NCBI GenBank assembly: GCA_964457245.1
Contig: CAYWET010000006.1
Coordinates: 21,098 to 85,097, forward strand
Direction of reading: 5' to 3'
From: an uncultured Chryseobacterium sp.
GTDB lineage: Bacteria > Bacteroidota > Bacteroidia > UBA10329
Length of the DNA: 64,000 nucleotides
Shown: one piece after another, positions 1 to 18,707 of the stretch
How the letters are laid out: each line of letters opens with the position of its first letter
How positions within the stretch are numbered: the first letter of the stretch is position 1
Translations under genes and position numbers: made by a program
Notes under the pieces: model-generated
What the model saw: the letters and a program-made list of their open reading frames with translations, nothing else
The model's database searches: none
What the model was told of the DNA's origin: nothing

Positions 1-250
1 AACGAAATACAACAAAGTAATTATGTTTTTACTATCCCTATTTGTGATACAGTGTTAAAAATAACAATCGATTTTGTGGATGAAAAAATTAACAATCTTT
101 TTTTAATCGGGGTGTGGGACTTGTAAAAAATTTAATTTTTAAACGGCCTGTTGGGTTGCGGGTTCTTTTAATAAAAAAGTATCCGTTTTCGTGGTTCTTC
201 AGGTAAAGACCTCTATTCGTTGGCTTTTACTGAGCGGATGTTTGAGTTAG

Positions 251-284
251 AAACAAAAAAAACCGGAGCCATTAGGCTCCGGTT
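251..284 (-). terminator. Rho-independent terminator of the giant gene at 330..4937
   Basis: Perfect 10-bp inverted repeat aaccggagcc/ggctccggtt (261-270/275-284) with a 4-nt loop. On the minus strand it is followed by a run of 8-10 T (plus-strand A run 251-260). It lies 45 bp past the stop codon. Confidence 0.75.
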
Positions 285-329
285 GCTTGATTAGTTGAAA
301 GATCTACTTTTCGCAGTGCGCCAATATTA

Positions 330-3300
330 CTATTGTGCTCCAAGTTTGGATTTCAAACTCTCAATCTCCAACTGTTGTTTCTCCGTGGTTTCAATTAGCT
401 TACGGATGAGTTCTGAAAGTTCTTCGTCTTCGTGAGATTGAGCACTCGGAACCGAGGATGCAACGGGTTTTCCACTTTTCAGAGCTTCTATTTGTCGCTG
501 CTGTTCTTTCATGGCTTCCACCAAAATTGGAGTTACCTTACCGTAGTCCACGGTGAGTAGGTTTTCTCCATCAATTTGACCTACAACCTCGGGGAAAAGC
601 TTCTGTAGGTCTTGCGCAATGAACCCTAGGTGATTCTTGTTCTTTTCAGGGTTTTCTTCATTGTAAGGTGCGGTGCCTGGCTTAATGTCATACGTGTATG
701 CTTTCAATTGTAGTAACTTATCCAAAGCGGACGAGGAAGACAACGGCCTTAGATTTTCCTTGACTGCTAAATCAGAGAAATAGTAATATCCAGACACGGC
801 ATAGTGGTAATAAGCCCAAACCGAATACCAGTAATTCTGGAGACGTCCTATCTGGCCATGGTTAGCAGACTGGGTCCTGAGAGTGGTTCTACCATCATCG
901 TTGGAAACATAAAAGTCTTGCCCTGTTGGTAGGTCAACCCGAAGTCGGTCAATAATGTTGACCACATCTGCACCTGTGCCATTCGCATCTTCTGCATATA
1001 TGGTGTTCACGGTAAGGTTGTTTACATCCCACACATTATAGTCTTGTAAGCGGATGTCACGCCACATGGTAAGCCCAGCTTCGTTGAATTGCGCAGTTTG
1101 TGACTCACCGTTGTTCGCATAAATTCTTACACCACCATAATCGCCATGAGCAGAAAGCTTGATACCCGTATGGAAACGTATCATCAGGTCTGGATAGGGA
1201 TGTGACCAACCACCGGCTTCCTGATAGATTGCGTATGCGCGATCTACACCGTGCCAACCGATTCCAAGGTCTCCATGATTGGGAGTTACGTTTGGCTTGA
1301 CCATCATCCAGTTGTTGTTGAGGTTCAATGTGGTTGTTGCGGTGTGGTTACCAAGATTGTCACCATAACTTCCTACGTTTCCGGTGGTGATCAGTTCGGT
1401 CCAGCCAGTAGTTCCGCTTCCGTTGGTTTTTCTGAACCAAAGCCGTTGATCATAAAAGCTGCCAGCAATCTGCATAGCATAATTATTGCCCGAATTACTG
1501 TGTCGAGAGTCGATAAGGTGCCACCAACCAGATGATCCTGTTGGGTATCCTTCTCCAGCACTGGCAGAACTGGTTTCGTAGAATCCAGATAGAACACCGT
1601 CTGTGTTTCCATAAAGTGTGTTATTATCCCTTGTTTGGGTTCTGGAGCTGTTGTTACCATAGAAGAGGTTTCCTTCAAGCTCAAGGCCGAGGTTATTGGA
1701 TTGCCAATCGAAGAAATGGATTCTTCGGTTTGAGTATGGAAGACCAGCAATATTATAGTTCTGTGCCAAGCGCATTGTTCCTTCGGCCACCCCACCGTTA
1801 TGGAATGATATAGTAGCTCGGTTTCCGGTTGTACTTGTATTTTCTGCAATTGCCAGTGTGTAGTCTCCACCACTGCAACACTCAGTTGCTCCATCTCTGG
1901 TCAGTGTGGTTTGACCATGAACATCAAAAGTTGAACTAGGGTCCATGGTTCTTACCCCAACTCGCTTGTTAAGCCCATCCAACGTAAGAACTTGATCGGT
2001 CGCATTGATATTCGAGTGTGGATTTGTTCGTCCTCCAGTATTTGCATAGCCGAAGTCGAGGTAATGCATTCGGTTGCCCCAGTTACCTTGATTCACAACG
2101 AATTTTCTGTAGTCGGCTGCGTTACTCGGGTTATATGATGCAAATGTCAATGTACTGCCATGACTATTATTGGCCTGACTAGAGGCAATAACAACATCAC
2201 TGTAAGAAGAGGATACCACTAATTGTCCTCTACCATTGGCGGATCCTGGAGTTTCTATTCCTGTGAATAGGTTTTGACCACCACCTCCACCACTTTGGTG
2301 AATGTTGGTTCGACCCATTACGTGCAACATGGAGACAGGGGCGGTTGTGCCAATTCCCACATATCCTGTGTTCGCTTTAACACGGATTCTTTCATTTGTT
2401 CCATTGGCGTATAGTCTTAGATCCGCGCTTGCCCCACCAGAACTGTTGTAGTTCAAATACATACCGTCTTGATATGATGTGGAGTTATTCTGAATGACAC
2501 GAAGATTGCCATACACATCTGCACCTGAACCGAAAATTACATTGGTATTATCCAATCGGTAGGCATTCTCGACATTTGCAAGCCCATTGATCCAAAAATC
2601 TGCGGTTTGAGCCGAGCCGAACTGATTCCAGATGTATCCAGCGTCATTATTGGGAACATCAGTAGTAGGATACAGCGTTCCATTATTATCGGCCATAAGG
2701 ATACGATTACCACCGCCAGCAAGGCTTTCGACCTGAAGACCCGCAGACCCCGCAGTTCCCCCTCCCGCAGCGCGATACGTGTCGTTGATGACAACGTTCG
2801 ATCCGGCAGGAGGCGAAAGATGAATGTTCGCGTTGGCTGAGACCACCCTACCTTGAATCACCATGTCTCCCCAACCAGAACCTCCGATGGGGTAGGGGTC
2901 TGATGTGGAACCACAGTTTACACAATCAAAAAACAAGGAACCATTCAAGGTCATGTGACCACCATTGCTGATGGAAGCAACAGGAGTAGTTCCGTTAACA
3001 CCCCAGGTCCAACCACGATCACCTTGCGCATCGTTGTTCATGTTCATTTTGATGCTATAGTCTTGAACATCCCCGTACTGGTATTCCCCAGTGTTACCCA
3101 TAGAGATCTTGTAGTCGTTGCTACTCCAGAATCGAAGACCGTAGCCATTAGCGGCTCGCATATCGAGGTGGTTGATGTTATCAATCTCATTGTTGTTCAT
3201 GTTCAGAGTACCCGTGGCAGTATGATTACCAAGGTTATCGCCCATCCCGGTTCCGACCAGTGAAGAAAGATTTACAAGGTCCCCATCTGCATCAGAAATT

Positions 3301-4937
3301 ATCAGTTGGTTGGCACTCGAAAGTCCCGAAACGCGAATGCCACCTCCTAGGATGTCCAATTTTCGGCCAGGAGAGGTTGTTCCCACCCCAACATTACCCG
3401 AGTTGAGCGACATGACATGTGTGCTTCCTGACGTAACCGTATTGTACTGGGTTCCATCTGTCACATAAAAATCGATGGCGTTATTGGTTGAACCACCAGA
3501 GCTATTATGTCGAGTATGGATGAAATGTTGGAAGGCATCATCCCCATCATAACCGAAGGCTATCTGAGCTCCATTAGCAAAGGTGCTCTGACCATTTCCA
3601 CCTCTAAGTCCAAGAGTGGCTCGGGTATCTGTGTTAGACCCATTTACAACCAATTTGTTCTGAATGCCTGTGCTTAGACCGATTCCGACTTGCTGAGTAT
3701 TGTTGATACGCATGGCCTCACCACCTGCTGTTGAAAGCCTTATCTGGTCTTCGTCTGCAGTTGCTTCGACTTCTACTTTCGTGTCGCCATCATCATCAAC
3801 TAGAACTCTTCTCAACGGATCCAAATCAACTGTTTGAAGACCACCGGCATCGTCTTCCACCTGTAGTTGCAGGTCGGTTCCGCTCAAAGAAAATGTAGTA
3901 ATCGCTTGATCATCGGTATTATCAGCAAACTGTGACAGATCCAAGGTTTGATTGGCCTGTCCGTCATCTTCCAGCGAAATATTGAGGGTATTTCCCGAAA
4001 GGGAAAGTACATCGATAGTTTGGTCATCAGTATTATCGGCAAAACCGGAAAGGTCAATGGAGTGGGTGGCCTGTCCATCATTCTCCAAAGAAAGTTGTAG
4101 CGTGTTTCCACTCAGTTGAACCACATCGAACTGCTGCTCATCGGTATTGTCCTTGTACGGAGAAAGGTCGAGCACATGAGTGGCCTGGCCATCAGCCTCT
4201 AAAGAGAGTCGAAGTTCATCCGAAGTGATGTTAATTACATCGAACTGCTGGTCGTCCGTGTTGTCCATGAATTGCGATAGGTCCAAAGTTTGAGTAGCCT
4301 GTCCGTCATCTTCCAACGAGATGTTCATTGTATTTCCTGTCAGAGAAAGAACATCAATTGCCTGATCATCAGTATCCACGGCCAAACTGCTGAGGTCCAC
4401 GACATGTGTTGCAAGACCGTCATTCTGAAGAGACAGTTGCAGGTTAGTACCAACCAATTGTACCACATCGAACTGTTGTTCATCGGTGTTGTCCAAGTAA
4501 CCGGAGAGGTCGAGGACGTGGGTTGCTTGCCCGTCATTTGAGATTGAAAGCAGCAATTGGTTTGAACCGTTAATGGACACCTGATCGAACTGCTGGACGT
4601 CTGTATTGTCCAAGAAAGAACTCAGATCGATACTGTGTGTTGCCTGTCCGTCATTCTCGACAGATATTTCAAGGTCGGTTCCGTTGAGTTGAATGACATC
4701 TAACACCTGATCGTCTGTGTTTGCGTTGAGCGTTATCCACTGGGTTCCATCATGGAACTGGAAAGCAGTGCCGGTCCATCGCAATGAACCTGCTGATCCG
4801 GTTGTGGTGCTACCGACCTTGATGGCCCCGGCCACATCGAGTTTCTGTTGCGGAGCTGCTATATCTACGCCCACGTTCTGTGCGAATGAGACACTTAAAG
4901 AACCAGCAAATATTGTGAGTAAAAAGAGCTTTTTCAT
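330..4937 (-). CDS. Giant secreted tail-fibre-domain protein, 1535 aa. It has a signal peptide, 8 x 38-aa Asp-rich repeats, beta-rich VGIGTT-motif region and a C-terminal intramolecular-chaperone (peptidase S74-like) domain.
   Basis: Single uninterrupted ORF. N-terminus MKKLFLLTIFAGSLSVSFAQ is a signal peptide. The repeats have the form ...DLSxxxDNTDDQ. VGIGTTAPVSMLHV is a tail-fibre hallmark. The C-terminus FSDLAVKENLRPL...GFIAQDLQKLFPEVV matches the phage endosialidase/tail-spike chaperone motif (S-D-x-x-x-K-E-N-I/L) plus GFIAQ. Confidence 0.85.
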   Translation of the reverse strand: MKKLFLLTIFAGSLSVSFAQNVGVDIAAPQQKLDVAGAIKVGSTTTGSAGSLRWTGTAFQFHDGTQWITLNANTDDQVLDVIQLNGTDLEISVENDGQATHSIDLSSFLDNTDVQQFDQVSINGSNQLLLSISNDGQATHVLDLSGYLDNTDEQQFDVVQLVGTNLQLSLQNDGLATHVVDLSSLAVDTDDQAIDVLSLTGNTMNISLEDDGQATQTLDLSQFMDNTDDQQFDVINITSDELRLSLEADGQATHVLDLSPYKDNTDEQQFDVVQLSGNTLQLSLENDGQATHSIDLSGFADNTDDQTIDVLSLSGNTLNISLEDDGQANQTLDLSQFADNTDDQAITTFSLSGTDLQLQVEDDAGGLQTVDLDPLRRVLVDDDGDTKVEVEATADEDQIRLSTAGGEAMRINNTQQVGIGLSTGIQNKLVVNGSNTDTRATLGLRGGNGQSTFANGAQIAFGYDGDDAFQHFIHTRHNSSGGSTNNAIDFYVTDGTQYNTVTSGSTHVMSLNSGNVGVGTTSPGRKLDILGGGIRVSGLSSANQLIISDADGDLVNLSSLVGTGMGDNLGNHTATGTLNMNNNEIDNINHLDMRAANGYGLRFWSSNDYKISMGNTGEYQYGDVQDYSIKMNMNNDAQGDRGWTWGVNGTTPVASISNGGHMTLNGSLFFDCVNCGSTSDPYPIGGSGWGDMVIQGRVVSANANIHLSPPAGSNVVINDTYRAAGGGTAGSAGLQVESLAGGGNRILMADNNGTLYPTTDVPNNDAGYIWNQFGSAQTADFWINGLANVENAYRLDNTNVIFGSGADVYGNLRVIQNNSTSYQDGMYLNYNSSGGASADLRLYANGTNERIRVKANTGYVGIGTTAPVSMLHVMGRTNIHQSGGGGGQNLFTGIETPGSANGRGQLVVSSSYSDVVIASSQANNSHGSTLTFASYNPSNAADYRKFVVNQGNWGNRMHYLDFGYANTGGRTNPHSNINATDQVLTLDGLNKRVGVRTMDPSSTFDVHGQTTLTRDGATECCSGGDYTLAIAENTSTTGNRATISFHNGGVAEGTMRLAQNYNIAGLPYSNRRIHFFDWQSNNLGLELEGNLFYGNNSSRTQTRDNNTLYGNTDGVLSGFYETSSASAGEGYPTGSSGWWHLIDSRHSNSGNNYAMQIAGSFYDQRLWFRKTNGSGTTGWTELITTGNVGSYGDNLGNHTATTTLNLNNNWMMVKPNVTPNHGDLGIGWHGVDRAYAIYQEAGGWSHPYPDLMIRFHTGIKLSAHGDYGGVRIYANNGESQTAQFNEAGLTMWRDIRLQDYNVWDVNNLTVNTIYAEDANGTGADVVNIIDRLRVDLPTGQDFYVSNDDGRTTLRTQSANHGQIGRLQNYWYSVWAYYHYAVSGYYYFSDLAVKENLRPLSSSSALDKLLQLKAYTYDIKPGTAPYNEENPEKNKNHLGFIAQDLQKLFPEVVGQIDGENLLTVDYGKVTPILVEAMKEQQRQIEALKSGKPVASSVPSAQSHEDEELSELIRKLIETTEKQQLEIESLKSKLGAQ
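3794..4706 (-). repeat. In-frame tandem array of 8 x 114-bp (38-aa) Asp-rich repeats inside the giant gene
   Basis: Periodic protein motif [FIL]D[VL]xxLxGxxLxLSLExDGxATHxxDLSxYxDNTD(D/E)Q counted 8 times. Confidence 0.8.
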
Positions 4938-5361
4938 GGCATTTCAAACTAATGTTGAATATGCAAGATAGTGGTCGATTGTCACTTAGCTTACAAATCA
5001 ACCCTTGCTGTGAACGGATAAATGCCCAAAGTTTTAAGGTTCTCGCTGTGCCGAAATAAGCAGGTTTAGTCTAATGGTGATAAAAACTCGGAATCAGAAT
5101 TTCTCGCACTTATTTGAGTTTTGGTTTTGATACTGCCAAAATTTCGTAAAAATTCAGGGTGTTATTTTTAAGCGAGACCGAGCAGGGCCTTGATACAAGT
5201 ATAAGGTAATCACAAATTCCTAGCAATGTTTTTTAAGAGGCAAACTTCTTATGCGGTGGTAGTCATCGCCCATTTGGAGTTTAGGACAATTTATGCACAG
5301 GGTGGGCAACCAGAGCCCATTCACCCTGTGGTTATAAACCCAGAAGACGGCATTAAAAAAC

Positions 5362-8300
5362 TTATCTCCCTTCTTCCGCTGGAAATGAATTTTCTTCTTC
5401 AACCGGAGCCTCTAGCGGTGCTGGCGTAAGTGACGGTTTAGCGTCTTTTACAGAATCCTCAACAGGAATTTCCACGTTTTCCAAAGCATTTTCAGGAGGA
5501 AATACACCACCAGACCACGGAGCAGTAGGGTCTTCCATCGGCTCATAGAACTCATCACCTAATCGTTCAATTTCCTTCGGATGTTCTTTGGTTAACGCCT
5601 CATGTTCTGCTGTTTCCAACATGTCGACGAATCGTTCTGAGTATTTGTTGGATGCAAGTGCCTCTTCATCCTCTGGTATTCTGGCCATTGCAATCCAGCT
5701 GAACGGAACACTCTCTGACTCGGATTTATCTACAAAAAAACCGGTTTGATCGATATTGGATACCGAAGGGTTAAAATTACCGCTGCCACCCATGGCAGAA
5801 ACGGTGACCACCGGTTGAGCACCATTAAGTGACGCGATGAACTCTGGAGAGAACTCAACTCGAGCACGCTGTCCATCTATCACATCAACACCAAAATCCT
5901 TAATGTTTCTAAGCTGTTTTTCAATTGCTTGGAGCTCTTTTTTCAAAATCTTCAGAGCCCCAGTATTATATATCGAGAGTTCGCCATAGAGTACGCCTTT
6001 CTTGCCAGGCGTAGTTAAGGCGCCTGGAGTTTCCTCCGCTATAAAACCTACCTGAACAGCATCACTGAAGCCTTTTGTAGTTCCCTCATCCTTGTACTTG
6101 TAATAGTTTAGGTTGAGATCATCCATAAAAGCCCATGCGCTCTCGTAATCTTCGTTATCAAATGGATGGATGTTTTTTTTCTTGTCTCGGGTACTCAGAT
6201 AACCATAGGTGGTGGCATACACATAACCTTGCGCATAAACGGAGTAATTTGCACCAGAGAACTGTCCGTTCCAGTAACCGTTGGTGGCGCTGATGGAGTA
6301 TATAACCGTTTGGTTAGGGCAGTATGGGTGAAAAGCGTAGCTACCAGCAGTATTGTTGATGTGTACCGACTTGTTACCATAACTTCTTATCCATGTGCCG
6401 TCAGACATTTGCCAACCACCTCCGTACGAACCATTGTACCAGCCCGTACTGTTGTAGCTGCGATGCCATCCGGCACCATCGTCAATTACGGTCAGACCAT
6501 CAATTACGGAGCTTCCTGCAGCAACAATGGATACTGTACCAGGCTGTGCTGGATTGGCACTGTATCCGTTATTGTTCCAGTCAATGAAGATGGGGAAGTT
6601 AGCATCTCCACCATTACTTACGCTGGCAACGTCACTTCCGCTTCTTCTGAATCGGGCAATTTCCGATGAGTTATTACCAGAGGCAAAGTAGAATCTGTTA
6701 GAGTGATATTCTAATTTTCCTTCATCAGCGCCTGGGTTGCCCGTCCAAGACTCATTACCCTCTTCATCAAAATATAGGTTAGGAGAATATCCGTCATCGT
6801 TTCTTGTGCGAAGTTGCCATTGTCTGGCCGCATTCAGCCAACCCTGCCAGTCTGCGGTCCAGTGCATATAGCTTCTGGTACCAGTACTATTCATAAGAGC
6901 CAATCCACCAGAACCATTGCCCGTTCTGATGTTGATGTCGGAATTGTTTCGCGGATAAATGTGCCAACCGTTATTGCTCCAAAGAACACCGTCATTGTCG
7001 CTATGACGTTGCCAGTTGCTCAGGTAAAAATCGGTTACACCATTAACTACGTTGTTTTGCACGTTGAGGGTTGTGGTACCTAAGTGGTTACCTAGGTTGT
7101 CGCCAAGACCCGAACCATTCAGGTTGGCTACGGTATATAGATCTCCCGCAGCATTGGCCATGGTAATTCGGTTTCCGGAACCAGCCAGACCAGTAATTCT
7201 AACGGCATCGTTAAGCAAGAGGGTTCCGCCATCGTTGGCAATACCGGCCCTAGCATACATTTGATTCTGTGAATAGAACGTTCCTCCATTGTTGTACATA
7301 CCTGTTCGGAACTCTGTAAGCGTGGCACCTCCATTTCTGTATGATGCGATTTCCGGATAACTATCATTGAAGGTGACGCTCATGTGGTCATTAACATCCT
7401 GTGCATCTTCCATGTCAACACCTGCGGAGAACGCCAATGATGCGTAGCCATCATTACGATCATAAATACCACCATCGTCAGAAATGTGAATACCACCACC
7501 AGTTGCATTATTGTTTGATACTTTAAGTGACTTTTCAATCTGCATAGCACCCGCGGTGTTCAACGCGGCAACTGGCGTTACACCATAAACACCCCAAGTC
7601 CAGCCCCGTCCGGCTGTGTTACTCATGTGCATCTTAATGCTGTAATCGGTTACAGGCCCGAAATGATATTCTGAGCTGTTTCCCATTCCAATAGCGTACT
7701 GGTTATCTGACCAGAACCTAAGACCACGGCTAGTCCCAGGGGTAATGTCCAAATATCCGACATTGTCCAACTCGTTGTTACTCATGTTCAGATTGGTTGT
7801 GGCTGTATGGTTTCCGAGATTGTCTCCCATTCCAGAAGGCACGCTGGTGGCGCCAACGAGATTTCCAGAGTTGTCCGTTGTAACCAACCTTGTTCCGCCA
7901 CCAGTTAGACTTGAAATTCTGGTTGTTCCAACCACCTCCAATTGTTGATTCGGACTCAAAGTTCCGATTCCAACGTTGCCAGAATTCATTGACATGGCAT
8001 GAGTGCTACCACTCGTCACGGAGTTGTTCTGGGTTCCATCGCTTACATAGAAATCGATAGAATTGTTTGTTGAACCTCCAGAACTGTTATGACGTGTTTG
8101 AATGTAGTGCTCGTAGTCGTCAGCACCATTGTATCCAAAGGCAATCTGCGCACCATTATTGAAGGTGAATTGCTCGTTTCCACCAAGAAGGCCAAGAGTT
8201 GAAGAAACATCTGACGTGCTGCCATTAACAACCAATCGGTTACTGATACCAGAAGACAACCCAACACCCACTTGCTGGGAAGAGTTAATAATCATAGCCT

Positions 8301-9999
8301 CAGTTCCATCGGTGGTAAACCGAATCTGATCCTCATTCGGGTTTGCCTCAACCTCAACGCGTGTGTCTCCGTTGGCGTCTTTTAGAAGTCTTCTTAATGA
8401 TTCCAGATCTACGCTTTGGGCACCTCCAGCATCAGATTCAACCTGAACAGAAAGAGTTGTCCCGCTGAGAGAAAGGTTCGTAATTTTTTGGTCATCTGTA
8501 TTGTCCAAATAGCCGCTGAGATTGACTGATTGTGGGCCCACACCATCATTTTCGAACTCCATTGTGAGGGCATTCCCCGCTAATATCGCGAAGGTCTCGA
8601 TCTGTTGATCGTCTGTATTGTCCAGATATCCTGAAAGATCGAAGCTATGAGTTGCGGCACCATCGTTTTCCAGCGATAGCTGAAGGGTGTTTCCAGAAAG
8701 TTGAACCACGTCCAACGCTTGGTCATCAGTGTTGTCAAGGTAGCCGGAAAGGTCAATGCTGTGGGTTGCAACACCATCATTCTCCAACGATACTTGAAGT
8801 GTATTTCCAGAGAGTTGGATTACGTCAAGCCCTTGGTCGTCTGTGTTGTCTAGATATGGCGAAAGACTCAAAACGTGAGGCGCTACACCATCATTTTCTA
8901 TGGACAAACGCAAGTTATTGGAAGAAATGTCCACAAGGTCAAATGCTTGATCATCTGTGTTGTCTAGGTAACCGCTAAGATCCAAGGTGTGGGTGGCCTG
9001 ACCATCATCTTCAAGTGAGAGTCGCAATTCATCAGATGTAATGTTGATCACATCAAACGTTTGGTCATCTGTATTGTCCGAGAAACCGCTCAAATCAATG
9101 TTGTGAGTTGCCTGCCCATCATTCTCAAGGGATAACTGCAGGTTCGAACCCACAAGTTGACCAACATCCAGACCCTGTTCATCTGTGTTGTCCTTATAGG
9201 GTGAAAGGCTAAGAACATGCGTTGCCTGCCCGTCACCTTCAACCGAAAGGCGAAGCTGGTCTGACGTAATATTTGCAACGTCCAACTTCTGATCGTCCGT
9301 ATTGTCTGCAAGACTGCTGAGGTCAATTATCTCAGTAGCTACTCCATCATCCTCAAGGGACAATTCAAGATTGGTTCCATTAAGTTGAGCGACATCCAAT
9401 GTCTGATCATCGGTATCAGTACCAATACTACTAAGGTTAATAACATGAGTTCCAACACCATCGTTCTGCAACGAAAGCTCTAAGTTGGTTCCCGAGAGTT
9501 GAACCACATCAAGTTGCTGTTGATCCGTATTGTCGAGATAACCAGAGAGATCCAAAACATGAGTAGCCTGCCCGTCCCCCTCAATAGACAGTAACAGCTG
9601 ATTAGCACCATTGATGGTTACCTGATCGAACTTCTGGTCATCAACATTGTCAAGATATCCACTCAGGTCAATGGAGTGCGTGGGCACACCATCAGCCTCA
9701 ATTGAAATCTCGAGATCGGTTCCGTTCAATTGGATTACATCGAATATTTGGTCGTCAGAATTTGAGTTCAATACAATCCAAGAGGTGCCATCGTGGAACT
9801 GAAGTTCTGTTCCGGTCCAACGTATGGAGCCAGCAGAACCCGATGTGGTATTTGCGATTTTCACAGACCCATTAACATCTAACTTCTGTTCGGGAACAAG
9901 TCTGTCTAGACCCAAATTCTGTGCTGATAAACCACTGCTGAAGCAGAAAAGCACCGTTAGTATGAGATAAATTCGATTCATATCTATGATTTTTTGCAA
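5362..9999 (-). CDS. Giant secreted tail-fibre-domain protein paralogue, 1545 aa. It has 12 x 38-aa repeats, a C-terminal S74-like chaperone motif (STRDKKKNIHPF) and a further acidic/Pro-rich extension of roughly 250 aa.
   Basis: Single ORF. Signal peptide (start possibly at the internal Met, MNRIYLILTVLFCFSSGLSAQ). The repeat block is homologous to the neighbours. Middle and C-terminal regions align by eye along their length with the ORF at 10034..14659. Confidence 0.85.
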   Translation of the reverse strand: MQKIIDMNRIYLILTVLFCFSSGLSAQNLGLDRLVPEQKLDVNGSVKIANTTSGSAGSIRWTGTELQFHDGTSWIVLNSNSDDQIFDVIQLNGTDLEISIEADGVPTHSIDLSGYLDNVDDQKFDQVTINGANQLLLSIEGDGQATHVLDLSGYLDNTDQQQLDVVQLSGTNLELSLQNDGVGTHVINLSSIGTDTDDQTLDVAQLNGTNLELSLEDDGVATEIIDLSSLADNTDDQKLDVANITSDQLRLSVEGDGQATHVLSLSPYKDNTDEQGLDVGQLVGSNLQLSLENDGQATHNIDLSGFSDNTDDQTFDVINITSDELRLSLEDDGQATHTLDLSGYLDNTDDQAFDLVDISSNNLRLSIENDGVAPHVLSLSPYLDNTDDQGLDVIQLSGNTLQVSLENDGVATHSIDLSGYLDNTDDQALDVVQLSGNTLQLSLENDGAATHSFDLSGYLDNTDDQQIETFAILAGNALTMEFENDGVGPQSVNLSGYLDNTDDQKITNLSLSGTTLSVQVESDAGGAQSVDLESLRRLLKDANGDTRVEVEANPNEDQIRFTTDGTEAMIINSSQQVGVGLSSGISNRLVVNGSTSDVSSTLGLLGGNEQFTFNNGAQIAFGYNGADDYEHYIQTRHNSSGGSTNNSIDFYVSDGTQNNSVTSGSTHAMSMNSGNVGIGTLSPNQQLEVVGTTRISSLTGGGTRLVTTDNSGNLVGATSVPSGMGDNLGNHTATTNLNMSNNELDNVGYLDITPGTSRGLRFWSDNQYAIGMGNSSEYHFGPVTDYSIKMHMSNTAGRGWTWGVYGVTPVAALNTAGAMQIEKSLKVSNNNATGGGIHISDDGGIYDRNDGYASLAFSAGVDMEDAQDVNDHMSVTFNDSYPEIASYRNGGATLTEFRTGMYNNGGTFYSQNQMYARAGIANDGGTLLLNDAVRITGLAGSGNRITMANAAGDLYTVANLNGSGLGDNLGNHLGTTTLNVQNNVVNGVTDFYLSNWQRHSDNDGVLWSNNGWHIYPRNNSDINIRTGNGSGGLALMNSTGTRSYMHWTADWQGWLNAARQWQLRTRNDDGYSPNLYFDEEGNESWTGNPGADEGKLEYHSNRFYFASGNNSSEIARFRRSGSDVASVSNGGDANFPIFIDWNNNGYSANPAQPGTVSIVAAGSSVIDGLTVIDDGAGWHRSYNSTGWYNGSYGGGWQMSDGTWIRSYGNKSVHINNTAGSYAFHPYCPNQTVIYSISATNGYWNGQFSGANYSVYAQGYVYATTYGYLSTRDKKKNIHPFDNEDYESAWAFMDDLNLNYYKYKDEGTTKGFSDAVQVGFIAEETPGALTTPGKKGVLYGELSIYNTGALKILKKELQAIEKQLRNIKDFGVDVIDGQRARVEFSPEFIASLNGAQPVVTVSAMGGSGNFNPSVSNIDQTGFFVDKSESESVPFSWIAMARIPEDEEALASNKYSERFVDMLETAEHEALTKEHPKEIERLGDEFYEPMEDPTAPWSGGVFPPENALENVEIPVEDSVKDAKPSLTPAPLEAPVEEENSFPAEEGR
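8394..9747 (-). repeat. In-frame tandem array of 12 x 114-bp repeats in the second giant gene
   Basis: The same 38-aa unit counted 12 times. Confidence 0.8.
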
Positions 10000-10033
10000 G
10001 AGGTTTAAATCAATTGTTGTCGTTCAGTTCAAT

Positions 10034-13000
10034 TTACTTACGACCACTTTCAATATCCTTTTCTCTTGCCGGATATGGATCCATTTCTTCGTCTTTAACA
10101 GGAGGGTCCAACGGAATCGGCTCTAATGATGGACCAGCATCCTTTACCGAGTCGTCAACAGGAACTTCAGCCGACTCAAATGCATTGCTTGGAGGGAATT
10201 GCCCACCTTCCCAAGGGGCTGTTGGGTCTTCATGCTGCTCGTAGAACTCCGCAGGCATTGGCTCGATTTCTTCTGGGTGTTCTTTTGTTAGCGCCTCGTG
10301 CTCAGCCGTTTCCAGCATATGGACAAACCTTTCGGAGTATCCTTTGGCCTCCAAAGCATCTTCGGTTGGCACCTTCGCCATGGCAATCCAGTTAAATGGA
10401 ACAGAGCCTTCCTTGGTTTTATTGACGTAGAAACCTGACTGATCAACCTCAGTAACCAAGAGGTTAAATGTTCCGTTGCCACCCATAGCGGTTACCGTGA
10501 CCACAGGTTGAGCACCATTCAAGGTTGAAGTGAAATCTGAGGAGAATTCTACCCTAGTTCTTTCATTTTCGATTTGCTCCACACCAAAGTCGCTTACGCT
10601 ACGTAGTTGCTCTTTGATATTCTTCAATTTTTTCTTGATAACCTTTAGAGCCCCAGTGTTGTAAATCGCCAACTCCCCATAGCGAACCCCAGTTTTTCCG
10701 GGGGTTGTGAGCGCTCCAGGAGTTTCTTCAGCCATAAATCCAACGTGTACGGCATCGCTGAAGCCTTTAGTTGTCCCTTCATCCTTGTACTTATAGTAGT
10801 TCAGTTCAAGGTCATCCATAAAAGCCAAAGCGCTTTCGTAGTCTTCGTCCTCAAATGGTCTTATGTCTTTTTTCTTCTCACGGGTACTTAGGTATCCATA
10901 AGTAGTAGCATATACATACCCTTGCGCATAGACTGAATAGTTGGCCCCAGCAAAGTAACCGTTCCAGTAACTGTTGGTTCCACTGATGGAATAGATTACT
11001 GTATGGTTAGGACTGTAAGGGTGGAATGCATAATACCCGCTTCTGTTAATATGAACGGATTTATTCCCGTAAGAACGAATCCATGTGCCGTCAGACATGT
11101 GCCAACCACCACCGTAAGAACCATTGTACCATCCAGTACCACCGTAGCTTCGATGCCAACCACCACCATCATCAATAACGGTGTTTCCATCAATCATGAA
11201 ACCACCAGCAGTGTAGACTGAAGGGTTACTTGCTGGATTAAGATAGTAGCCTGTATTGTTCCAGTCTCTAAAGATTGTGAAGATTGCCTCACCACTGTTG
11301 GTTACTCTACCCACATCGCTACCACTTCTTCTAAACCGTGCAATTTCTGTTGAATTGCTACCAGAAGCGATGTAAAATCTATTAGAATGATACTCGATTT
11401 TTCCTTCATCCGCTCCTGGGTTACCTGTCCACGATTCATTGCCTTCCTCATCGAAGTAAAGGCTCGGAGAATAGCCATCCAGATTCTGGGTTCTCAACTG
11501 CCACTGGCGTGCGGAGTTCAACCAACCTTGGTATCCACTATACCAGTGCAAATAACCACGTGTACTTCCGCCATTCATTAGAGCCACGCCACCAGAAGTT
11601 CCATTACCCGTTCGAAGGTTCATGTCAGAACTGTTTCTTGGATAAATGTGCCAAGCGTTATTGCTCCAGTAAATACCATCATTGTCGCTATGACGCTCCC
11701 AGTTGCTCAAATAGAAATCCGTCACACCATTTATAACGTTATTCTGCATGTTGAGCGTAGTGGTTCCCAAATGGTTTCCAAGATTGTCGCCCAGTCCTGT
11801 TCCGTTCAGGCTGCTAGTTGTGTAAAGGTCGCCCGATGGGTTTGACATTACTATTCTGTTACCAGTTCCGGCCAGACCTGTAATTCTAACAGCGTCATTG
11901 AGAGTAAGCGTTCCCTGATCATTGGCGATTCCAGCTCTCGCATACATTTGATTTTGAGAGTAGAAAGTTCCACCATTATTAAATATCCCGGTTCTGAACT
12001 CCGTAAGAGTGGTACCGTTGTTTCGGTAAGACCATATTTCCGGGTAACTATCGTTGAATCGAACTTCCAAGTGATCGGTAGCATCTTGAGCATCTTCAAA
12101 ATCGACCCCAGCAGAAAACGCAAATGACCCGTAAGCATCATTTCTATCATAAATACCACCATCATCCGACAGAATCAATCCTCCTCCCGTGGTGTTATCG
12201 TTGGATACCCGCAAGGAACCTTGTATCTGCATTTCACCAGATGTATTGATTGCAGCAACAGGCGTTTGACCGTCAACACCCCAGGTCCAACCTCTGCCGG
12301 CAGTATTGCTCATATGAGATTTAATGCTGTAATCAGTAACCGGGCCGTAACGATATTCCGTAGCGTTCCCCATGGCTATTGCATAAGAATTACTTGACCA
12401 AAAGCGAATACCCCGTCCATTTCCAGGAGTTATATCCACATAACCAGCATTATCTATTTCGTTATTATTCATGTTAAGGTTGGTGGTAGCTGTGTGGTTT
12501 CCAAGGTTGTCACCCATCCCGGCTGGAACGCTTGTAGCCGCCACCAGGTCTCCTTGGTTGTTGGTGGTCACTAGTCGTGTTCCACCACCAGCTAAACTTG
12601 AAACACGAGTTGTTCCGATTACATGTAGTTCGGTTTGCGGGTCTGTTGTCCTAACCCCAACATTTCCAGCATTTAGAGATAGCACATGCGTTGATCCACT
12701 TGTTACGGAACTAGTTTGAGTGCCATCACTGACATAAAAGTCAATTGCGTTGTTTGCAGCGGCACTGTTGTGTCTCGTGTGAATAAAGTGCTGATATCCA
12801 TTGGTTCCGTTGTATCCGAAAGCAATCTGAGCCCCATTGTTAAACGTGGTCGAGCCATTACCACCGCGCAGTCCGAGAACGGATGTAGCGTCTGAACCGG
12901 TTCCATATACCGCAAGCTTGTTATTGATGCCGGTTGAAAGCCCGATTCCTACTTGCTGTGAGGGATTAATAATCATCGCACCAGCGCCATCGGTTGTGAA

Positions 13001-14659
13001 ACGAATCTGGTCTTCATTCGGGTTTGCCTCAACTTCAACTCGGGTGTCACCGTTGGCATCACGAATCAATCTTCTCAACGGATCTAAATCAACGTTTTGA
13101 GCACCACCCGCGTCAGACTCTAGTTGCATCGTTAATGTGGTCCCGGACAAAGAGAAATCAGTAATCGACTGGTCGTCTGTATTGTCAAGGTAGCCACTAA
13201 GGTCAACAGTTTGAGCTGCCTGCCCATCATCCTCTATTTCTAACGAAAGCGTGTTTCCTGACAGGGAGAAGTTGTCTATCGTTTGATTATCTGTGTTGTC
13301 CAAATAAGGGGAAAGGTCGATACTGTGAGTTCCTACCCCATCATTTTCAATAGAAAGTTGGAGTGTGTTTCCAGAAAGCTGAATCACGTCAAAAACCTGA
13401 TCATCGGTATTGTCTAGGTATCCTGAAAGGTCGATGCTATGTGTTCCTACCCCGTCATTTTCAATGGAAAATTGGAGTGTGTTTCCAGAAAGCTGGATTA
13501 CATCAAAAACCTGATCATCGGTATTATCCAAGTATGGACTAAGGTCTAAGATATGAGGGGCAACCCCATCATCTTCGATTGACAAACGAAGATTGTTAGA
13601 GTTAATATCGATAAGATCGAAGGCTTGGTCGTCCGTGTTATCCAAATATGGGCTCAGATCTAAAACATAAGAAGCTTGACCATCATCTTCCAATGAAAGT
13701 ACTAGTTGGTGAGAAGCATTGATGGTGATGACATCAAAAACCTGATCATCTGTATTGTCAACAAAACCGCTCATGTCAATCACATTAGTAGCAACACCAT
13801 CCCCTTCGATAGACAGCTCCAAGTTATTACCAACCAACTGAATTATATCGAAAATCTGATCATCCGTGTTATCGAGATATGGACTAAGGTCCAATACATG
13901 CGTAGCTTGGCCGTCATCCTCTAAAGACAGACGCAGTTCATTCGAAGTAATGTTAACCACGTCAAACTGCTGATCATCGGTATTGTCAGCCAAACTGCTA
14001 AGGTCAATCACTTCAGTGGCTACACCGTCATCTTCTAACGAAAGCTCCAGGTTTGTTCCATTGAGCTGTGCAACATCAAACGCTTGATCGTCCGTATCCA
14101 CAGCCAAACTGCTGAGGTCAATCACGTGAGTTCCAACCCCATCGTTTTGAAGTGATAGTTCCAAATTGGTTCCGTTCAATTGTACAACATCAAATTGCTG
14201 CTCATCTGTGTTGTCCAGGTAACCAGAGAGGTCAAGAACATGTGTAGCCTGACCATCATCTTCCAATGAGAGCAAAAGCTGGTTCGACCCGTTTATGGAA
14301 ACCTGATCAAAGGTTTGATCATCGGTGTTGTCCAAAAAACTACTTAGGTCGATGGTATGCGTGGCCTGGCCATCATTTTCAATGGAGATTTCGAGATCAT
14401 TCCCGTTAAGTTGGATGACATCTAGCACCTGATCATCCGTATTTGCATTCAGCGTAACCCACTGTGTGCCATCATGGAACTGGAATTCTGTTCCCGTCCA
14501 CCGTAAAGATCCGGCAACGCCATTGGTTGTGCTACCAATCCGAAGCGCACCGGCCACGTCTAATTTTTGTTGCGGAGAGGCAACATCGACACCAACATTT
14601 TGAGCGAATGTGAAGCCAGACGATAGAAGAAGAGAGACTGCTAGGTAAAAATGTTTCAT
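10034..14659 (-). CDS. Giant secreted tail-fibre-domain protein paralogue, 1541 aa. It has 12 x 38-aa repeats, an S74-like chaperone motif and a C-terminal extension.
   Basis: Single ORF. The N-terminal ~75 aa and the first repeats are near-identical to ORF 330..4937. The middle and C-terminus resemble ORF 5362..9999. Only 35 bp separate its stop from the start of the downstream paralogue, so the two are probably co-transcribed. Confidence 0.85.
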   Translation of the reverse strand: MKHFYLAVSLLLSSGFTFAQNVGVDVASPQQKLDVAGALRIGSTTNGVAGSLRWTGTEFQFHDGTQWVTLNANTDDQVLDVIQLNGNDLEISIENDGQATHTIDLSSFLDNTDDQTFDQVSINGSNQLLLSLEDDGQATHVLDLSGYLDNTDEQQFDVVQLNGTNLELSLQNDGVGTHVIDLSSLAVDTDDQAFDVAQLNGTNLELSLEDDGVATEVIDLSSLADNTDDQQFDVVNITSNELRLSLEDDGQATHVLDLSPYLDNTDDQIFDIIQLVGNNLELSIEGDGVATNVIDMSGFVDNTDDQVFDVITINASHQLVLSLEDDGQASYVLDLSPYLDNTDDQAFDLIDINSNNLRLSIEDDGVAPHILDLSPYLDNTDDQVFDVIQLSGNTLQFSIENDGVGTHSIDLSGYLDNTDDQVFDVIQLSGNTLQLSIENDGVGTHSIDLSPYLDNTDNQTIDNFSLSGNTLSLEIEDDGQAAQTVDLSGYLDNTDDQSITDFSLSGTTLTMQLESDAGGAQNVDLDPLRRLIRDANGDTRVEVEANPNEDQIRFTTDGAGAMIINPSQQVGIGLSTGINNKLAVYGTGSDATSVLGLRGGNGSTTFNNGAQIAFGYNGTNGYQHFIHTRHNSAAANNAIDFYVSDGTQTSSVTSGSTHVLSLNAGNVGVRTTDPQTELHVIGTTRVSSLAGGGTRLVTTNNQGDLVAATSVPAGMGDNLGNHTATTNLNMNNNEIDNAGYVDITPGNGRGIRFWSSNSYAIAMGNATEYRYGPVTDYSIKSHMSNTAGRGWTWGVDGQTPVAAINTSGEMQIQGSLRVSNDNTTGGGLILSDDGGIYDRNDAYGSFAFSAGVDFEDAQDATDHLEVRFNDSYPEIWSYRNNGTTLTEFRTGIFNNGGTFYSQNQMYARAGIANDQGTLTLNDAVRITGLAGTGNRIVMSNPSGDLYTTSSLNGTGLGDNLGNHLGTTTLNMQNNVINGVTDFYLSNWERHSDNDGIYWSNNAWHIYPRNSSDMNLRTGNGTSGGVALMNGGSTRGYLHWYSGYQGWLNSARQWQLRTQNLDGYSPSLYFDEEGNESWTGNPGADEGKIEYHSNRFYIASGSNSTEIARFRRSGSDVGRVTNSGEAIFTIFRDWNNTGYYLNPASNPSVYTAGGFMIDGNTVIDDGGGWHRSYGGTGWYNGSYGGGWHMSDGTWIRSYGNKSVHINRSGYYAFHPYSPNHTVIYSISGTNSYWNGYFAGANYSVYAQGYVYATTYGYLSTREKKKDIRPFEDEDYESALAFMDDLELNYYKYKDEGTTKGFSDAVHVGFMAEETPGALTTPGKTGVRYGELAIYNTGALKVIKKKLKNIKEQLRSVSDFGVEQIENERTRVEFSSDFTSTLNGAQPVVTVTAMGGNGTFNLLVTEVDQSGFYVNKTKEGSVPFNWIAMAKVPTEDALEAKGYSERFVHMLETAEHEALTKEHPEEIEPMPAEFYEQHEDPTAPWEGGQFPPSNAFESAEVPVDDSVKDAGPSLEPIPLDPPVKDEEMDPYPAREKDIESGRK
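13075..14428 (-). repeat. In-frame tandem array of 12 x 114-bp repeats in the third giant gene
   Basis: The same 38-aa unit counted 12 times. Confidence 0.8.
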
Positions 14660-14838
14660 TGTGCCAACTGTTTGATGGTAAATCCGAGCGAGAGTGGTTT
14701 GGATGAATTCAAAATGGGAACGCTCGGATTTTGCAATTTAGGGCATAATGACAAATCGGTGAAACATAAATGGATGAAAAACCTCCGTATATGCCGATAG
14801 ATTTAAGATTTATCTATAATCTAACAGTGCAGGTCGCC

Positions 14839-15630
14839 CTAGAATGGGCTGATACCAATGCCGATAGAGACTGGAATGGCTTTCGTGCCTCGTCCTTCAA
14901 CAAAAAGTGGTGTCAGAGAATAAAAAACGTTCAAGTAGAAATTCGCATAGCCCACCCGGGCGGTTAACCCGTAACGAAATTTGGTGAGGTTTGGGATGTC
15001 ATAGGTTTTAATCTTCCGACCAAAGTTCACGCCTTGGTAAAAATAGTCGTCTTCTACCTTGGTTTTGGTGTGACTTTGTACAAGCCAGCCAAGTTTAAAT
15101 CCGACTGAAGCCGCTATACGCTTGCCATTTTTATGGGGCTTTGATCGAAAACGAACTTCAACAGGAATATCAATAAAGTTGGTACTCAACTTATTGACGG
15201 TGATACTTTGACCATCGAAAAATTTAGCATCCAGATGTGTGTATGTTGAACCATTTGTGGTCGGATGCTCGATTGGGAATGCCTCCATGTGAATGTTGTG
15301 CGAGTTGAACCCAATACCACCCGCAACGCTGAAAACACTTTTGGCAATTACGTAGTCGTAAAGGACCGCAACATCCACTCCCCTAGATGAAAACCACTTT
15401 GGTTCCACGGTAGAAGGATGGAATAACCAGCTGTCAAAATTCAGGTTAACCAGAACCATTTCCTTCTTTGGTGGCTTCCGTTTTTTCTTTGGTTTTTCGT
15501 CTGCCACGGTGGACGTTGAGGTTTCTTGAGCGAAAACAGCCGAAGCGCTTAAGATTAGCAAGAAGAATATAAAAAGAGCTCTCCGCATAAGAAGTTGAAC
15601 AAAGATAGTCGAAGGACTTTGCTTAGTCAT
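14839..15630 (-). CDS. Outer-membrane beta-barrel (porin-family-like) protein; the true start is probably the internal Met (MRRALFIFF...).
   Basis: Signal peptide. Lys-rich linker. Alternating hydrophobic beta-strand pattern. C-terminal aromatic residue (ends ...GISPF). Confidence 0.55.
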   Translation of the reverse strand: MTKQSPSTIFVQLLMRRALFIFFLLILSASAVFAQETSTSTVADEKPKKKRKPPKKEMVLVNLNFDSWLFHPSTVEPKWFSSRGVDVAVLYDYVIAKSVFSVAGGIGFNSHNIHMEAFPIEHPTTNGSTYTHLDAKFFDGQSITVNKLSTNFIDIPVEVRFRSKPHKNGKRIAASVGFKLGWLVQSHTKTKVEDDYFYQGVNFGRKIKTYDIPNLTKFRYGLTARVGYANFYLNVFYSLTPLFVEGRGTKAIPVSIGIGISPF

Positions 15631-17374: not shown

Positions 17375-17886
17375 GTAAACTTGTCGGATAGAATTTTGGC
17401 CACAGCTTCAAGACCCTCTTGGTCTTCACTATCAAAAGCGTTAAGACTTTCGCTATCCACATCTAGGACGGCTACAACAATTTCATCTTTTATAACTGGA
17501 ACAACAATTTCCGACCGCGACTGCGAACTGCAAGCAATATGGCCTGGAAACTCATCCACGTTCGGGACTATAATGGTCTGGGCTTTTTGCCAAGCGGTTC
17601 CACAAACACCTATTCCGAAGGCGATTCTAGTGCAAGCCACATCGCCCTGAAACGGGCCCAAAACCAATTCATTGTCATCGACAACATAAAAACCGACCCA
17701 GAAAAAGCCGAATGTTTGGCGAAGTGCCGCAGCCGTATTTGCCAAGCTGGCGGTAAGGGATGTCTCACCTTCTAAAAGTGCTTCCAGCTGAGGAAGAAGC
17801 TCTTCATACCTTTCCTTCTTCGAGGTAGATGATATAGCAAGACTTTCCATCAGTTTTTGAAAAAGGCTATTAGAATTTTGAGACAT
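17371..17886 (-). CDS. GAF-domain protein (free methionine-R-sulfoxide reductase-like)
   Basis: 171 aa. Motifs FYVVDDNELVLGPFQG...ACTRIAFGIGVCGTA are characteristic of the fRMsr GAF family. Confidence 0.6.
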   Translation of the reverse strand: MSQNSNSLFQKLMESLAISSTSKKERYEELLPQLEALLEGETSLTASLANTAAALRQTFGFFWVGFYVVDDNELVLGPFQGDVACTRIAFGIGVCGTAWQKAQTIIVPNVDEFPGHIACSSQSRSEIVVPVIKDEIVVAVLDVDSESLNAFDSEDQEGLEAVAKILSDKFT

Positions 17887-18707
17887 TCTTCTGGTGCTTC
17901 CAGATGACCCATATGGCCGATTGTGCTGATTTTAGCCAGCGAAACATTTTCATTCAATCCAGCTAAGGACTCAACATCTTCCGTTTTTATGACCGGATCT
18001 AACAAACCATGGACAATCAGTTTTGGAAACGTTGCATGTTGAAGCACCTGCTCTAACGAAGGCCGCTCCATCATTCCTCTGATGTTCGCAATGATTCCTT
18101 GCTCAGAAAACCCGATAGCTGTTTCTATCAACTCACTTATTTCGCTTTGAAGCATTTTTCGGGTTTCTTCTGCAAATAAAGAAGGAATAACGGTCTTTAT
18201 GTAAACCTCCTTGTTCCTTTGAGCCAGTCCGATTACACGCTCGCGTTCCTTTTTTCTTTCATCAGAGTCGGCATAGGCCGTTGAATGAAAAAGCGTCAAA
18301 GAGTTGATTTTTTCAGGAAACGTATTTGCCAATCCTAGTGCCACATACCCACCCATCGAATGCCCGATAACATGAAACTTCTCGACTTCCTCAGCATCTA
18401 GAACAGCCGAAACTGCTTGGGCATGGTCGTTCATGCTATGAACATATCCAAGGCAACCACTCTCGCCTTGCCCCAATAGGTCAACCGTAATGACATTGAA
18501 TTTGCTGACAAAGGCTTCGGCATAGTTGTTCCACATTCCCCGCTCTTCTAAAAAACCATGCAGCAGCACAAGCGTTTCACCACCACCGCGTTGTGAATAA
18601 ACTACCTCAACCCCTTTATATTTTACGGTCTTGCGCAAGCTAATTTTGTGAGCGCGCCAAAAGTACATACTAAGCAGAATACCAATCCGTTCCAAAAGTG
18701 CAACCAA
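17850..18707 (-). CDS. Alpha/beta-fold hydrolase; start uncertain
   Basis: LVLLHGF...GHSMGG nucleophile elbow. 285-aa ORF. Confidence 0.65.
   Translation of the reverse strand: MVALLERIGILLSMYFWRAHKISLRKTVKYKGVEVVYSQRGGGETLVLLHGFLEERGMWNNYAEAFVSKFNVITVDLLGQGESGCLGYVHSMNDHAQAVSAVLDAEEVEKFHVIGHSMGGYVALGLANTFPEKINSLTLFHSTAYADSDERKKERERVIGLAQRNKEVYIKTVIPSLFAEETRKMLQSEISELIETAIGFSEQGIIANIRGMMERPSLEQVLQHATFPKLIVHGLLDPVIKTEDVESLAGLNENVSLAKISTIGHMGHLEAPEECLKILIAFFKN

Follow-up and report, generated by a model that had tools for sequence, protein, structure and literature searches.

Trimeric autotransporters and Ig-like repeat adhesins are surface adhesins whose stalks are built of repeats that vary in number, and in characterised relatives the Peptidase_S74 (S74) domain drives the folding of a trimer and then cleaves itself. 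The MAT proteins of Bdellovibrio bacteriovorus (Caulton et al. 2024, PMC10769870) are chromosomally encoded, carry a signal peptide, a conserved N-terminal domain and either S74 or non-S74 tips, and occur as many paralogues of varied lengths. The MAT structures 8OND (Bd2133), 8OJN (Bd3182) and 8OL4 (Bd2439) are intertwined trimeric β-helices with capping loops of the consensus V-G-G/N-π-x-x-P-x-x-x-L, and the same work quotes SDxxxK as the catalytic motif of S74 (PMC10769870). Here we describe three tandem paralogous genes, A, B and C, each encoding an array of acidic repeats of about 38 residues ending in DNTDDQ. They lie in a stretch of 64,000 nucleotides (the window) of contig CAYWET010000006.1 from assembly GCA_964457245.1 (positions 21,098 to 85,097, forward strand), deposited as an uncultured Chryseobacterium sp.

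We consider it probable that the arrays form the proximal stalks of three Sec-exported fibres resembling phage tail fibres and MATs, and that these stalks are of stable length and made of ancient units. The three open reading frames (ORFs) are all on the minus strand and code for 1535, 1545 and 1541 amino acids. As read from the translations, all three proteins open with a signal-peptide-like segment and a conserved head of about 55 residues ending in NANTDDQ. In gene A, the N-terminal segment and small head are followed by the 8-unit array, a MAT-like β-helix region, a variable centre, the S74 domain and a coiled-coil-like C-terminal tail. The exact sequence of gene A is present in NCBI on a 123,487-bp contig of a metagenome-assembled genome (MAG) from an uncultured marine Flavobacteriales. 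While the ORF of gene B opens at TTG 9999, its likely true start is ATG 9981 (MNRIYLIL...), because the orthologue B' in the sister-species locus L048 (88.7% identical) begins with MNRIY. The main features are as follows.

330-4937, minus strand: gene A, 1535 amino acids, from the ORF and its translation
5362-9999 (likely 5362-9981), minus strand: gene B, with a 12-unit array and an S74 domain
10034-14659, minus strand: gene C, 1541 amino acids, with a 12-unit array and an S74 domain
4707-4937, minus strand: signal-peptide-like N-terminus (MKKLFLLTIFAGSLSVSFA/QN) and head of about 55 residues ending in NANTDDQ, gene A, read from the translation
3804-4706, minus strand: array A, seven full units (38, 39, 38, 38, 38, 38 and 38 residues) and a degenerate terminal unit of 34 residues
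8386-9747, minus strand: array B, 11 full units and one degenerate unit
13067-14428, minus strand: array C, 11 full units and one degenerate unit
3243-3803, minus strand: post-array domain of A (RRxLxDxDGDTKVEVE ... AQIAFGY ... HFIHTRHN ... GNVGVGTTSPxxKL), a MAT β-helix homologue by profile comparison
582-776, minus strand: S74 domain of A, residues 1388-1452, 55.8 bits, E 5.6e-15, starting at S-D-L-A-V-K
6028-6189, minus strand: S74 domain of B, residues 1271-1324, 23.5 bits, motif S-T-R-D-K-K-K
10721-10885, minus strand: S74 domain of C, residues 1259-1313, 25.3 bits, motif S-T-R-E-K-K-K

Peptidase_S74 (PF13884) was the sole Pfam match of the three proteins, and it lies near the C-terminus in each. 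The Ser and the Lys five residues on are present in A, B and C, and the Asp that follows the Ser is replaced by Thr in B and C. The search of the proteins against NCBIfam returned no relevant match, and in PHROGs A and C fell in tail-fibre families, with phrog_9942 covering the head, the array and the post-array region. When a profile of the post-array domain (alignment A2) was compared with the Protein Data Bank (PDB), it matched Bd2133 (8OND) with an E value of 3.7e-8, Bd3182 (8OJN) with 4.8e-4 and Bd2439 (8OL4) with 1.8e-3. The alignment passes through GNVGIGTTxPxxxLxV, in which the Pro comes one position later than in the published capping-loop consensus. These matches point to a post-array domain homologous to the trimeric MAT β-helix with capping loops. 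As in MAT families, a genome has several paralogues with exchangeable tips: related genomes have 3, at least 4, or 5 in tandem, the mosaic breakpoints are sharp, and P0003 carries a collar-type tip. Judged by sequence, the window proteins closely fit the description of MATs, in a different phylum.

When metagenomes were scanned with the post-array domain, 33 loci were retrieved, among which the DNTDDQ array occurs in L003 only, and the rest are giant fibre-like ORFs sharing the GNVGIGT-type domain. From the GTDB representatives, the post-array peptide of C retrieved one distant locus only (L001, 33% identity). The motif GNVG[IV]GTxxPxxxLxV recurs several times in each protein (in A around window positions 3300-3400 and 2300-2400, and elsewhere in A, B and C), and it is also present in giant marine ORFs of 2,000-4,600 residues that have no DNTDDQ array (L004-L035). 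The head is 60-97% identical across about 22 homologues, and AlphaFold2 modelled it, in a run on residues 21-470 of A, as three short strands with a predicted local distance difference test score (pLDDT) of up to 80.

In A, B and C, the units lie head to tail and in frame, span 114 or 117 nucleotides and end in DNTDDQ, with the consensus x[FLI]DVxQLxGNxLxLSLE[ND]DGxAT[HQ]x[IL]DLSx[YF]LDNTDDQ. The periodicity is far over chance, as nucleotide identity at a lag of 114 is 0.59-0.67 in comparison with 0.25 ± 0.03 at other lags. A hidden Markov model of the unit counted 8, 12 and 12 units, in agreement with the original prediction, made from the DNA alone, of 8, 12 and 12 in-frame units with a DNTDDQ motif and of a unit number that differs among the paralogues. 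The final unit of every array is degenerate, with 34 residues and without DNTDDQ, so the counts are 7+1, 11+1 and 11+1. The arrays are also where they had been placed (3794-4706, 8394-9747 and 13075-14428), with bounds that we put at slightly different positions, as listed above. The description of every unit as exactly 38 residues had to be given up: five units have 39 residues (unit 2 of A, B and C, B11 and C7), in addition to the shorter terminal units. Likewise, the motif "ATH" is only partly accurate, as His occupies that position in just 18 of the 24 units of exactly 38 residues.

Adjacent units had been described as very similar at the DNA level, but they are 48-71% identical, with a median near 60%, and only two pairs exceed this range. 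At their longest, exact matches between neighbouring units run over 5-15 nucleotides, apart from one of these two pairs.

13283-13510, minus strand: units C9 and C10, 82% nucleotide identity, 24-nucleotide exact match, 35/38 residues identical, the most similar adjacent pair
8605-8832, minus strand: units B9 and B10, 75% nucleotide identity, second among adjacent pairs

The Tandem Repeats Finder (TRF) check proposed with that description spoke against it as well, as the program reported just 2.1-2.4 copies in B and C and no repeat in array A even with a minimum score of 30. Comparing units at the same position of different paralogues (positional orthologues such as A1/C1, A2/C2 and B4/C4), the proteins are 84-92% identical and the DNA about 73-75%. 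Codon positions 1 and 2 of these pairs are identical at 79-100% and position 3 at 26-50%, while third-position identity in the best adjacent pair is 61%. Third codon (synonymous) positions are saturated between positional orthologues. Moreover, A1, A2, A3, A5 and A8 pair with C1, C2, C3, C5 and C12 at 71-90% amino acid identity, well over other pairings. Since third positions are saturated and positions 1 and 2 conserved, the units are ancient duplicates, each conserved by position and held by purifying selection on the protein. Exact tracts shared by array units of different paralogues do not exceed 17 nucleotides, so the arrays show no sign of recent gene conversion. A search of window positions 1-18000 gave no inverted repeats, and an invertible-segment mechanism at this locus was dropped.

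We compared unit number among relatives, the closest of which are different species (78-84% nucleotide identity in the flanks) rather than strains above 95% average nucleotide identity. The C cluster at 90% identity has five full-length members from independent sources, and all five have 12 units. The C-type proteins P0125, P0239, P0240 and P0242 are 89-94.6% identical to C with 12 units each, and C-type orthologues keep the same pattern of 38- and 39-residue units through unit 10 without any indel within the array. In the syntenic locus L048 of the sister species, whose flanks show the DNA identity given above, the gene order is GAF, Big_5, outer-membrane protein (OMP), C' (12 units), B' (12 units), A' (5 units) and HD. 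B-type genes thus have 12 units in 2/2. The protein of A' (P0193) has 5 units compared with 8 in A, and is otherwise mostly 86-98% identical over residues 350-1300. Eight units are present in both P0129-type proteins (P0129 and P0243) and in both P0133-type proteins (P0133 and P0244). Further loci contain five tandem paralogues with 12, probably 12, 10, 10 and 8 units (L049, in which J3 and J4 have 10 units), a 10-unit A-type gene followed by another paralogue (L003), and a lone gene in the equivalent slot, with 6 units and a collar-like tip (L051). Across species, A-type genes have 8, 5, 10 and 10 units.

The C, B, P0129 and P0133 lineages thus each keep one unit number, and variation is confined to the A lineage, where it lies between species. 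The original prediction had named an identical unit number in relatives as the result that would speak against it, and this is what was found for C, B and the P0129 type. As A-type unit number differs between species, stalk length is an evolving trait. The short-read contig L002 (7.2 kb, Logan; 100% identical to the window) stops inside unit C1 at window position 14349, and the L003 contig stops at 6269, also within the first unit of an array. Because arrays fragment short-read assemblies, unit counts from MAGs should be treated with caution, although the agreement of five C orthologues argues that those used here are sound.

The fibre genes are sharp-edged mosaics. Gene A is 78-100% identical to P0129 over residues 1-500 and about 18% identical from there on, and it is mostly 76-92% identical to P0133 up to residue 750 and unrelated beyond. 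Given these sharp edges, part of the change of unit number in the A lineage probably came from module exchange. Related genomes also differ in how many fibre genes follow the Big_5/OMP pair in this slot, with 1, 3, at least 4, or 5. P0129 itself (1340 residues, 8 units) appears to be a fourth paralogue, probably on the 123-kb contig that includes the window sequence, outside the window. Each protein has two copies of a further conserved motif, G[ML]GDNLGNHTATTxLNMxNNxI (in A at residues of about 560-590 and 1110-1130, in B and C at about 730 and 950), which seems to mark module boundaries.

To describe the fold of the unit, we ran AlphaFold2 on four units with a 45-row in-register alignment (run 1) and on residues 21-470 of A with 23 homologues (run 2). 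Confidence was low, with a pLDDT of 67 and 55 and a predicted template modelling score (pTM) of 0.38 and 0.20, respectively. In both runs, every unit was modelled as a 7-residue strand, a 2-residue turn (3 residues in the 39-residue unit 2), a 6-residue strand, a 7-residue loop E[ND]DGxAT, a 4-residue strand, a short helical turn and a low-confidence D-N-T-D-D-Q linker. Neither stacked coils nor confident packing between units appeared in the models. The original prediction had proposed a repetitive β-solenoid, and the strand-hairpin-strand-loop-strand unit does not bear this out: the hairpin of strands 1 and 2 with its 2-residue turn inside each unit argues against a canonical solenoid, though models of such low confidence still allow one. 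With the 4-unit model as query, Foldseek retrieved no significant PDB structure (best E 0.03, TM score 0.2, β-propeller and sliding-clamp noise), and in sequence searches of the PDB the repeat profile had no match and whole A and C had no match in the stalk.

The predicted strands are amphipathic, with L12, L14 and L16 on one face and H24, I26 and L28 together. A lone three-stranded sheet cannot bury its hydrophobic face, which agrees with a trimer as suggested by homology to S74 and MAT domains; from these homologies we infer a trimeric state. On the reading that we prefer, the host, an uncultured marine member of the Flavobacteriales, would export the proteins by Sec. From N- to C-terminus, a fibre would consist of signal peptide, head, array, a MAT-type intertwined trimeric β-helix with capping loops, a variable distal part and an S74 chaperone. 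The prediction for each 38-residue unit is a short antiparallel β-meander of three strands with one hydrophobic face, followed by a very acidic linker that in A, B and C mostly reads D-N-T-D-D-Q, and three chains would most likely run parallel with the hydrophobic faces of their units buried together. The array is probably a spacer that sets the reach of a distal binding tip, and its high negative charge probably needs the divalent cations of seawater as counter-ions. Unit number would be a stable, lineage-specific character, altered by rare in-register gain or loss of whole units and by recombination exchanging N-terminal modules between paralogues, with ongoing slippage playing no part.

The array could instead serve mainly as a cation- or ligand-binding module, an explanation that we regard as unlikely, though it survives better than the other rivals. 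Here the T-D-D-Q linkers and D3 of the next unit would chelate Ca2+ or Mg2+, the stalk would be rigidified or would adhere in a Ca2+-dependent manner to anionic polysaccharides or particles, and unit number would tune avidity rather than reach. The composition is in favour of it: the net charges of arrays A, B and C are -54, -78 and -91, with a pI of 4.05, 15-17% Asp, no Cys and no Trp. In an alignment of 45 fragments taken from the window and from homologues, the final T-D-x-Q has an invariant D and Q in 4/4 units and an invariant T in 2/4, and D3, D19 and G20 vary very little. A total of 21 linkers conform to a relaxed EF-loop-like pattern, D-x-[DNST]-x-[DENSTG]-[DNQ..]-x-[LIVMCF]-[D..], and the source habitat is marine. 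Seawater contains about 10 mM Ca2+. With arrays this acidic and a linker that is a dense cluster of oxygen donors, cation (Ca2+) binding is plausible. However, the strict EF-hand pattern PS00018 and DxDxDG had no match in the arrays, position 12 of the loop is acidic in only 2 of 22 relaxed matches, and Ca2+ families (RTX, Calx-beta, cadherin, TSP3 and others) had no Pfam or NCBIfam match at E ≤ 0.1. In addition, AlphaFold2 leaves the linker disordered, and in homologues the linker varies (GTGTDDQ, SINTDNQ, LVGTDDQ) with only T-D-[DN]-Q being general.

In a bolder proposal, the TDDQ repeat might be an undescribed trimeric stalk fold of three-chain prism beads, with axial acidic linkers chelating Ca2+ or Mg2+ and a His/Gln core ladder, acting as a cation-rigidified ruler in a battery of fixed-length fibres of marine Flavobacteriales. 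We put this forward as a speculation and think it doubtful. If it were true, the conserved chromosomal slot would hold a battery of MAT-like fibres with 5-12 units and different tips, which the upstream Big_5 protein and outer-membrane barrel might anchor or export.

On a model built on the original prediction, near-identical DNA units of a Ca2+-binding β-solenoid would undergo slippage or unequal crossing-over, giving frequent, contingency-locus-like variation of fibre length within populations. Unit numbers do differ, both among the paralogues and among the A-type orthologues (5, 8 and 10), and the pair C9/C10 retains its long exact tract. The mechanism also operates within the repeat family, as gene P0006 of locus L050, from another Bacteroidota genome, has a true DNA tandem repeat with periods of 207 and 300 nucleotides, 95% matches and a TRF score of 1900. 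In the window, however, the units offer a poor substrate, being 48-82% identical in DNA with saturated synonymous sites, exact tracts of at most 15 nucleotides in all adjacent pairs but one and an empty TRF result for A, and unit numbers are identical in 5/5 C, 2/2 B, 2/2 P0129-type and 2/2 P0133-type genes. As for its structural part, a tight β-hairpin within each unit is not solenoid-like, and neither a Ca2+-repeat family nor a strict motif was matched. Because the repeat is alike in protein yet old in DNA, differences of copy number among the paralogues are not evidence of active slippage. Slippage or unequal crossing-over does occur in the repeat family, but not recently in this window, and length variation of this kind is very improbable here. 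In L050, a reverse-complement copy of the repeat lies directly upstream of P0006 (5524-6017 compared with 6018-7442), and could reflect programmed inversion or an assembly artefact; the P0006 ORF has no signal peptide and is followed by CHU_C and PorP_SprF genes. Genes annotated "tail fiber domain-containing protein" are among the families enriched at predicted programmed inversions (PMC9881135).

The least likely explanation, in which a prophage, a tailocin or another phage-derived particle would use these proteins as tail fibres and the cell surface would not carry them, can appeal to the PHROG tail-fibre matches, the S74 chaperone domain and the 12 IMG/VR loci that contain the repeat, in one of which a portal gene is two genes away, but is opposed by housekeeping and envelope genes as neighbours with no phage structural gene within 60 kb, by a chromosomal slot kept in four genomes, by signal-peptide-like N-termini in all copies, which are unusual for virion fibres, and by an empty tblastn search of array C against 50,697 GenBank phage records. 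The window neighbours are those of an ordinary chromosome: sdh (sdhABC), pepP, ileS, an aminotransferase, a hydrolase, OMPs, type IX secretion system (T9SS) cargo and histidine kinases. Gene C is immediately preceded by three genes with overlapping stops and starts, and further features of the surroundings are given below with them.

17371-17886, minus strand: GAF protein gene (Pfam)
15623-17374, minus strand: Big_5/CarboxypepD_reg protein gene (Pfam)
14839-15630, minus strand: OMP_b-brl_2 outer-membrane barrel gene (Pfam)
261-284, minus strand: strong terminator-like hairpin, a 10-bp stem and then a T-run, 46 nucleotides past the stop of gene A

The GAF/Big_5/OMP set is syntenic with the fibre slot, being kept in L048 and L051, and in L052 the OMP gene is directly upstream of the fibre gene. 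These genes could be anchor or export partners of the fibres, or mere synteny. The P0133 and L003 fibre genes are without GAF/Big_5/OMP neighbours. A sigma-70 promoter scan did not rise above the level of the shuffled control, the sigma-70 model being uninformative for Bacteroidota. Elsewhere in the window are a T9SS cargo gene (37342-39129), a Lamin-tail/Big_5 protein gene (41911-44520) and four large ORFs without a Pfam match at the thresholds used: 19547-21400 (617 residues), 39216-40844 (542), 50403-51815 (470) and 56405-58699 (764).

Several observations weigh against the reading of the arrays as stalks of stable length in surface fibres. The S74 scores of B and C (23.5 and 25.3) barely exceed the Pfam cut-off of 22, and A alone scores 55.8. 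The proteins have no recognisable T9SS sorting domain, leaving their outer-membrane route unexplained; the signal peptides were read from the translations, and the surface location is, like the trimer, something that we infer; both AlphaFold2 models, moreover, are of low confidence. Stability of unit number is true of some lineages only, because the A lineage varies strongly between species, and the comparison of unit number reaches the species level, where the nearest relatives are those with 78-84% identity in the flanks.

To see how widely the repeat is spread, a 4-unit profile was searched against 1.84 billion proteins; 1,553 cluster representatives matched at E ≤ 1e-3, of which 862 also reached E ≤ 1e-10. 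The matching representatives have 1-53 units with a median of 6. Two unit classes are present, a three-strand class of about 36-42 residues and a two-strand class of about 28-31 residues. The matching clusters include Bacteroidota proteins in which the repeat is joined to a T9SS sorting domain, an S74 domain or a phage tail-collar/Gp10_C tip. The 12 IMG/VR loci, which were found with a 3-unit query, include giant ORFs. The repeat had no match in the copies of Pfam and NCBIfam used, and literature searches for the repeat motif strings and for Peptidase_S74 with Bacteroidetes found nothing. The 38-residue acidic stalk repeat is undescribed.

In L038, L039 and L047, classed as viral in IMG/VR, the repeat ORFs open with signal-peptide-like segments, as is unusual for virion fibres, and some of the repeat-bearing IMG/VR contigs may be bacterial or their proteins secreted. 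Many homologues (P0002, P0005, P0014, P0027 and others) are labelled PF26696, a family absent from the Pfam copy used. The label is missing from repeat-only proteins such as P0006 and from window-type proteins. PF26696 is probably an alternative N-terminal head (SAMLDVxSxxKGxLxPRMT...GLxVYxT...W) and not the repeat.

The value of this work is mostly corrective and descriptive. It links the MATs, a recently described class of phage-derived trimeric fibres encoded on the chromosome and so far studied in the predator Bdellovibrio, with marine Flavobacteriales that are abundant but uncultured. Should the fibres be exposed at the surface, they would be candidate adhesins for particles, algae or other cells, with a stalk length that is heritable and lineage-specific.

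Set beside known systems, the linkers resemble EF-hand loops (PS00018, DxDxDG) in having an Asp/Asn/Thr-rich loop with oxygen donors at alternating positions, but they lack the acidic residue at position 12 and the Gly at position 6, and have no strict or Pfam match. With S74 phage tail fibres and tailspikes (K1F endosialidase, 3GW6; T5 pb1, 4UW8), the window proteins share PF13884 with its Ser...Lys dyad, PHROG tail-fibre matches and a modular, mosaic evolution. They differ in the absence of phage context, in their signal-peptide-like N-termini and in a stalk repeat with no tblastn match in GenBank phage records and no PDB sequence match. Like repeat-stalk adhesins such as trimeric autotransporters and Ig-like repeat proteins, they would form a stalk from a tandem in-frame repeat whose unit number varies by paralogue and species, and some members of the repeat family have recent expansions that are identical in DNA (L050). 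In contrast, the units of the window are ancient and conserved by position, and they have no similarity to repeat families in Pfam or NCBIfam.

The closest likeness is to the MATs of B. bacteriovorus (Caulton et al. 2024, PMC10769870). While MATs come from Bdellovibrionota, the present genes belong to non-predatory-looking marine Flavobacteriales and stand in one tandem slot beside a Big_5/OMP gene pair. The heads, set side by side by size only, have about 130 residues in MATs and about 55 here, and the 38-residue DNTDDQ array has no counterpart in the solved MAT fragments. Both are chromosomal multi-paralogue families resembling phage tail fibres, in which a signal peptide and a conserved N-terminal β domain precede a long fibre that ends in an S74 chaperone (SDxxxK) or an alternative tip. 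Taken together with the swapping of tips, the differing fibre lengths and a post-array domain that appears homologous to the crystallised MAT β-helix with capping loops, these shared features bring the three genes of the window closest to the MATs.

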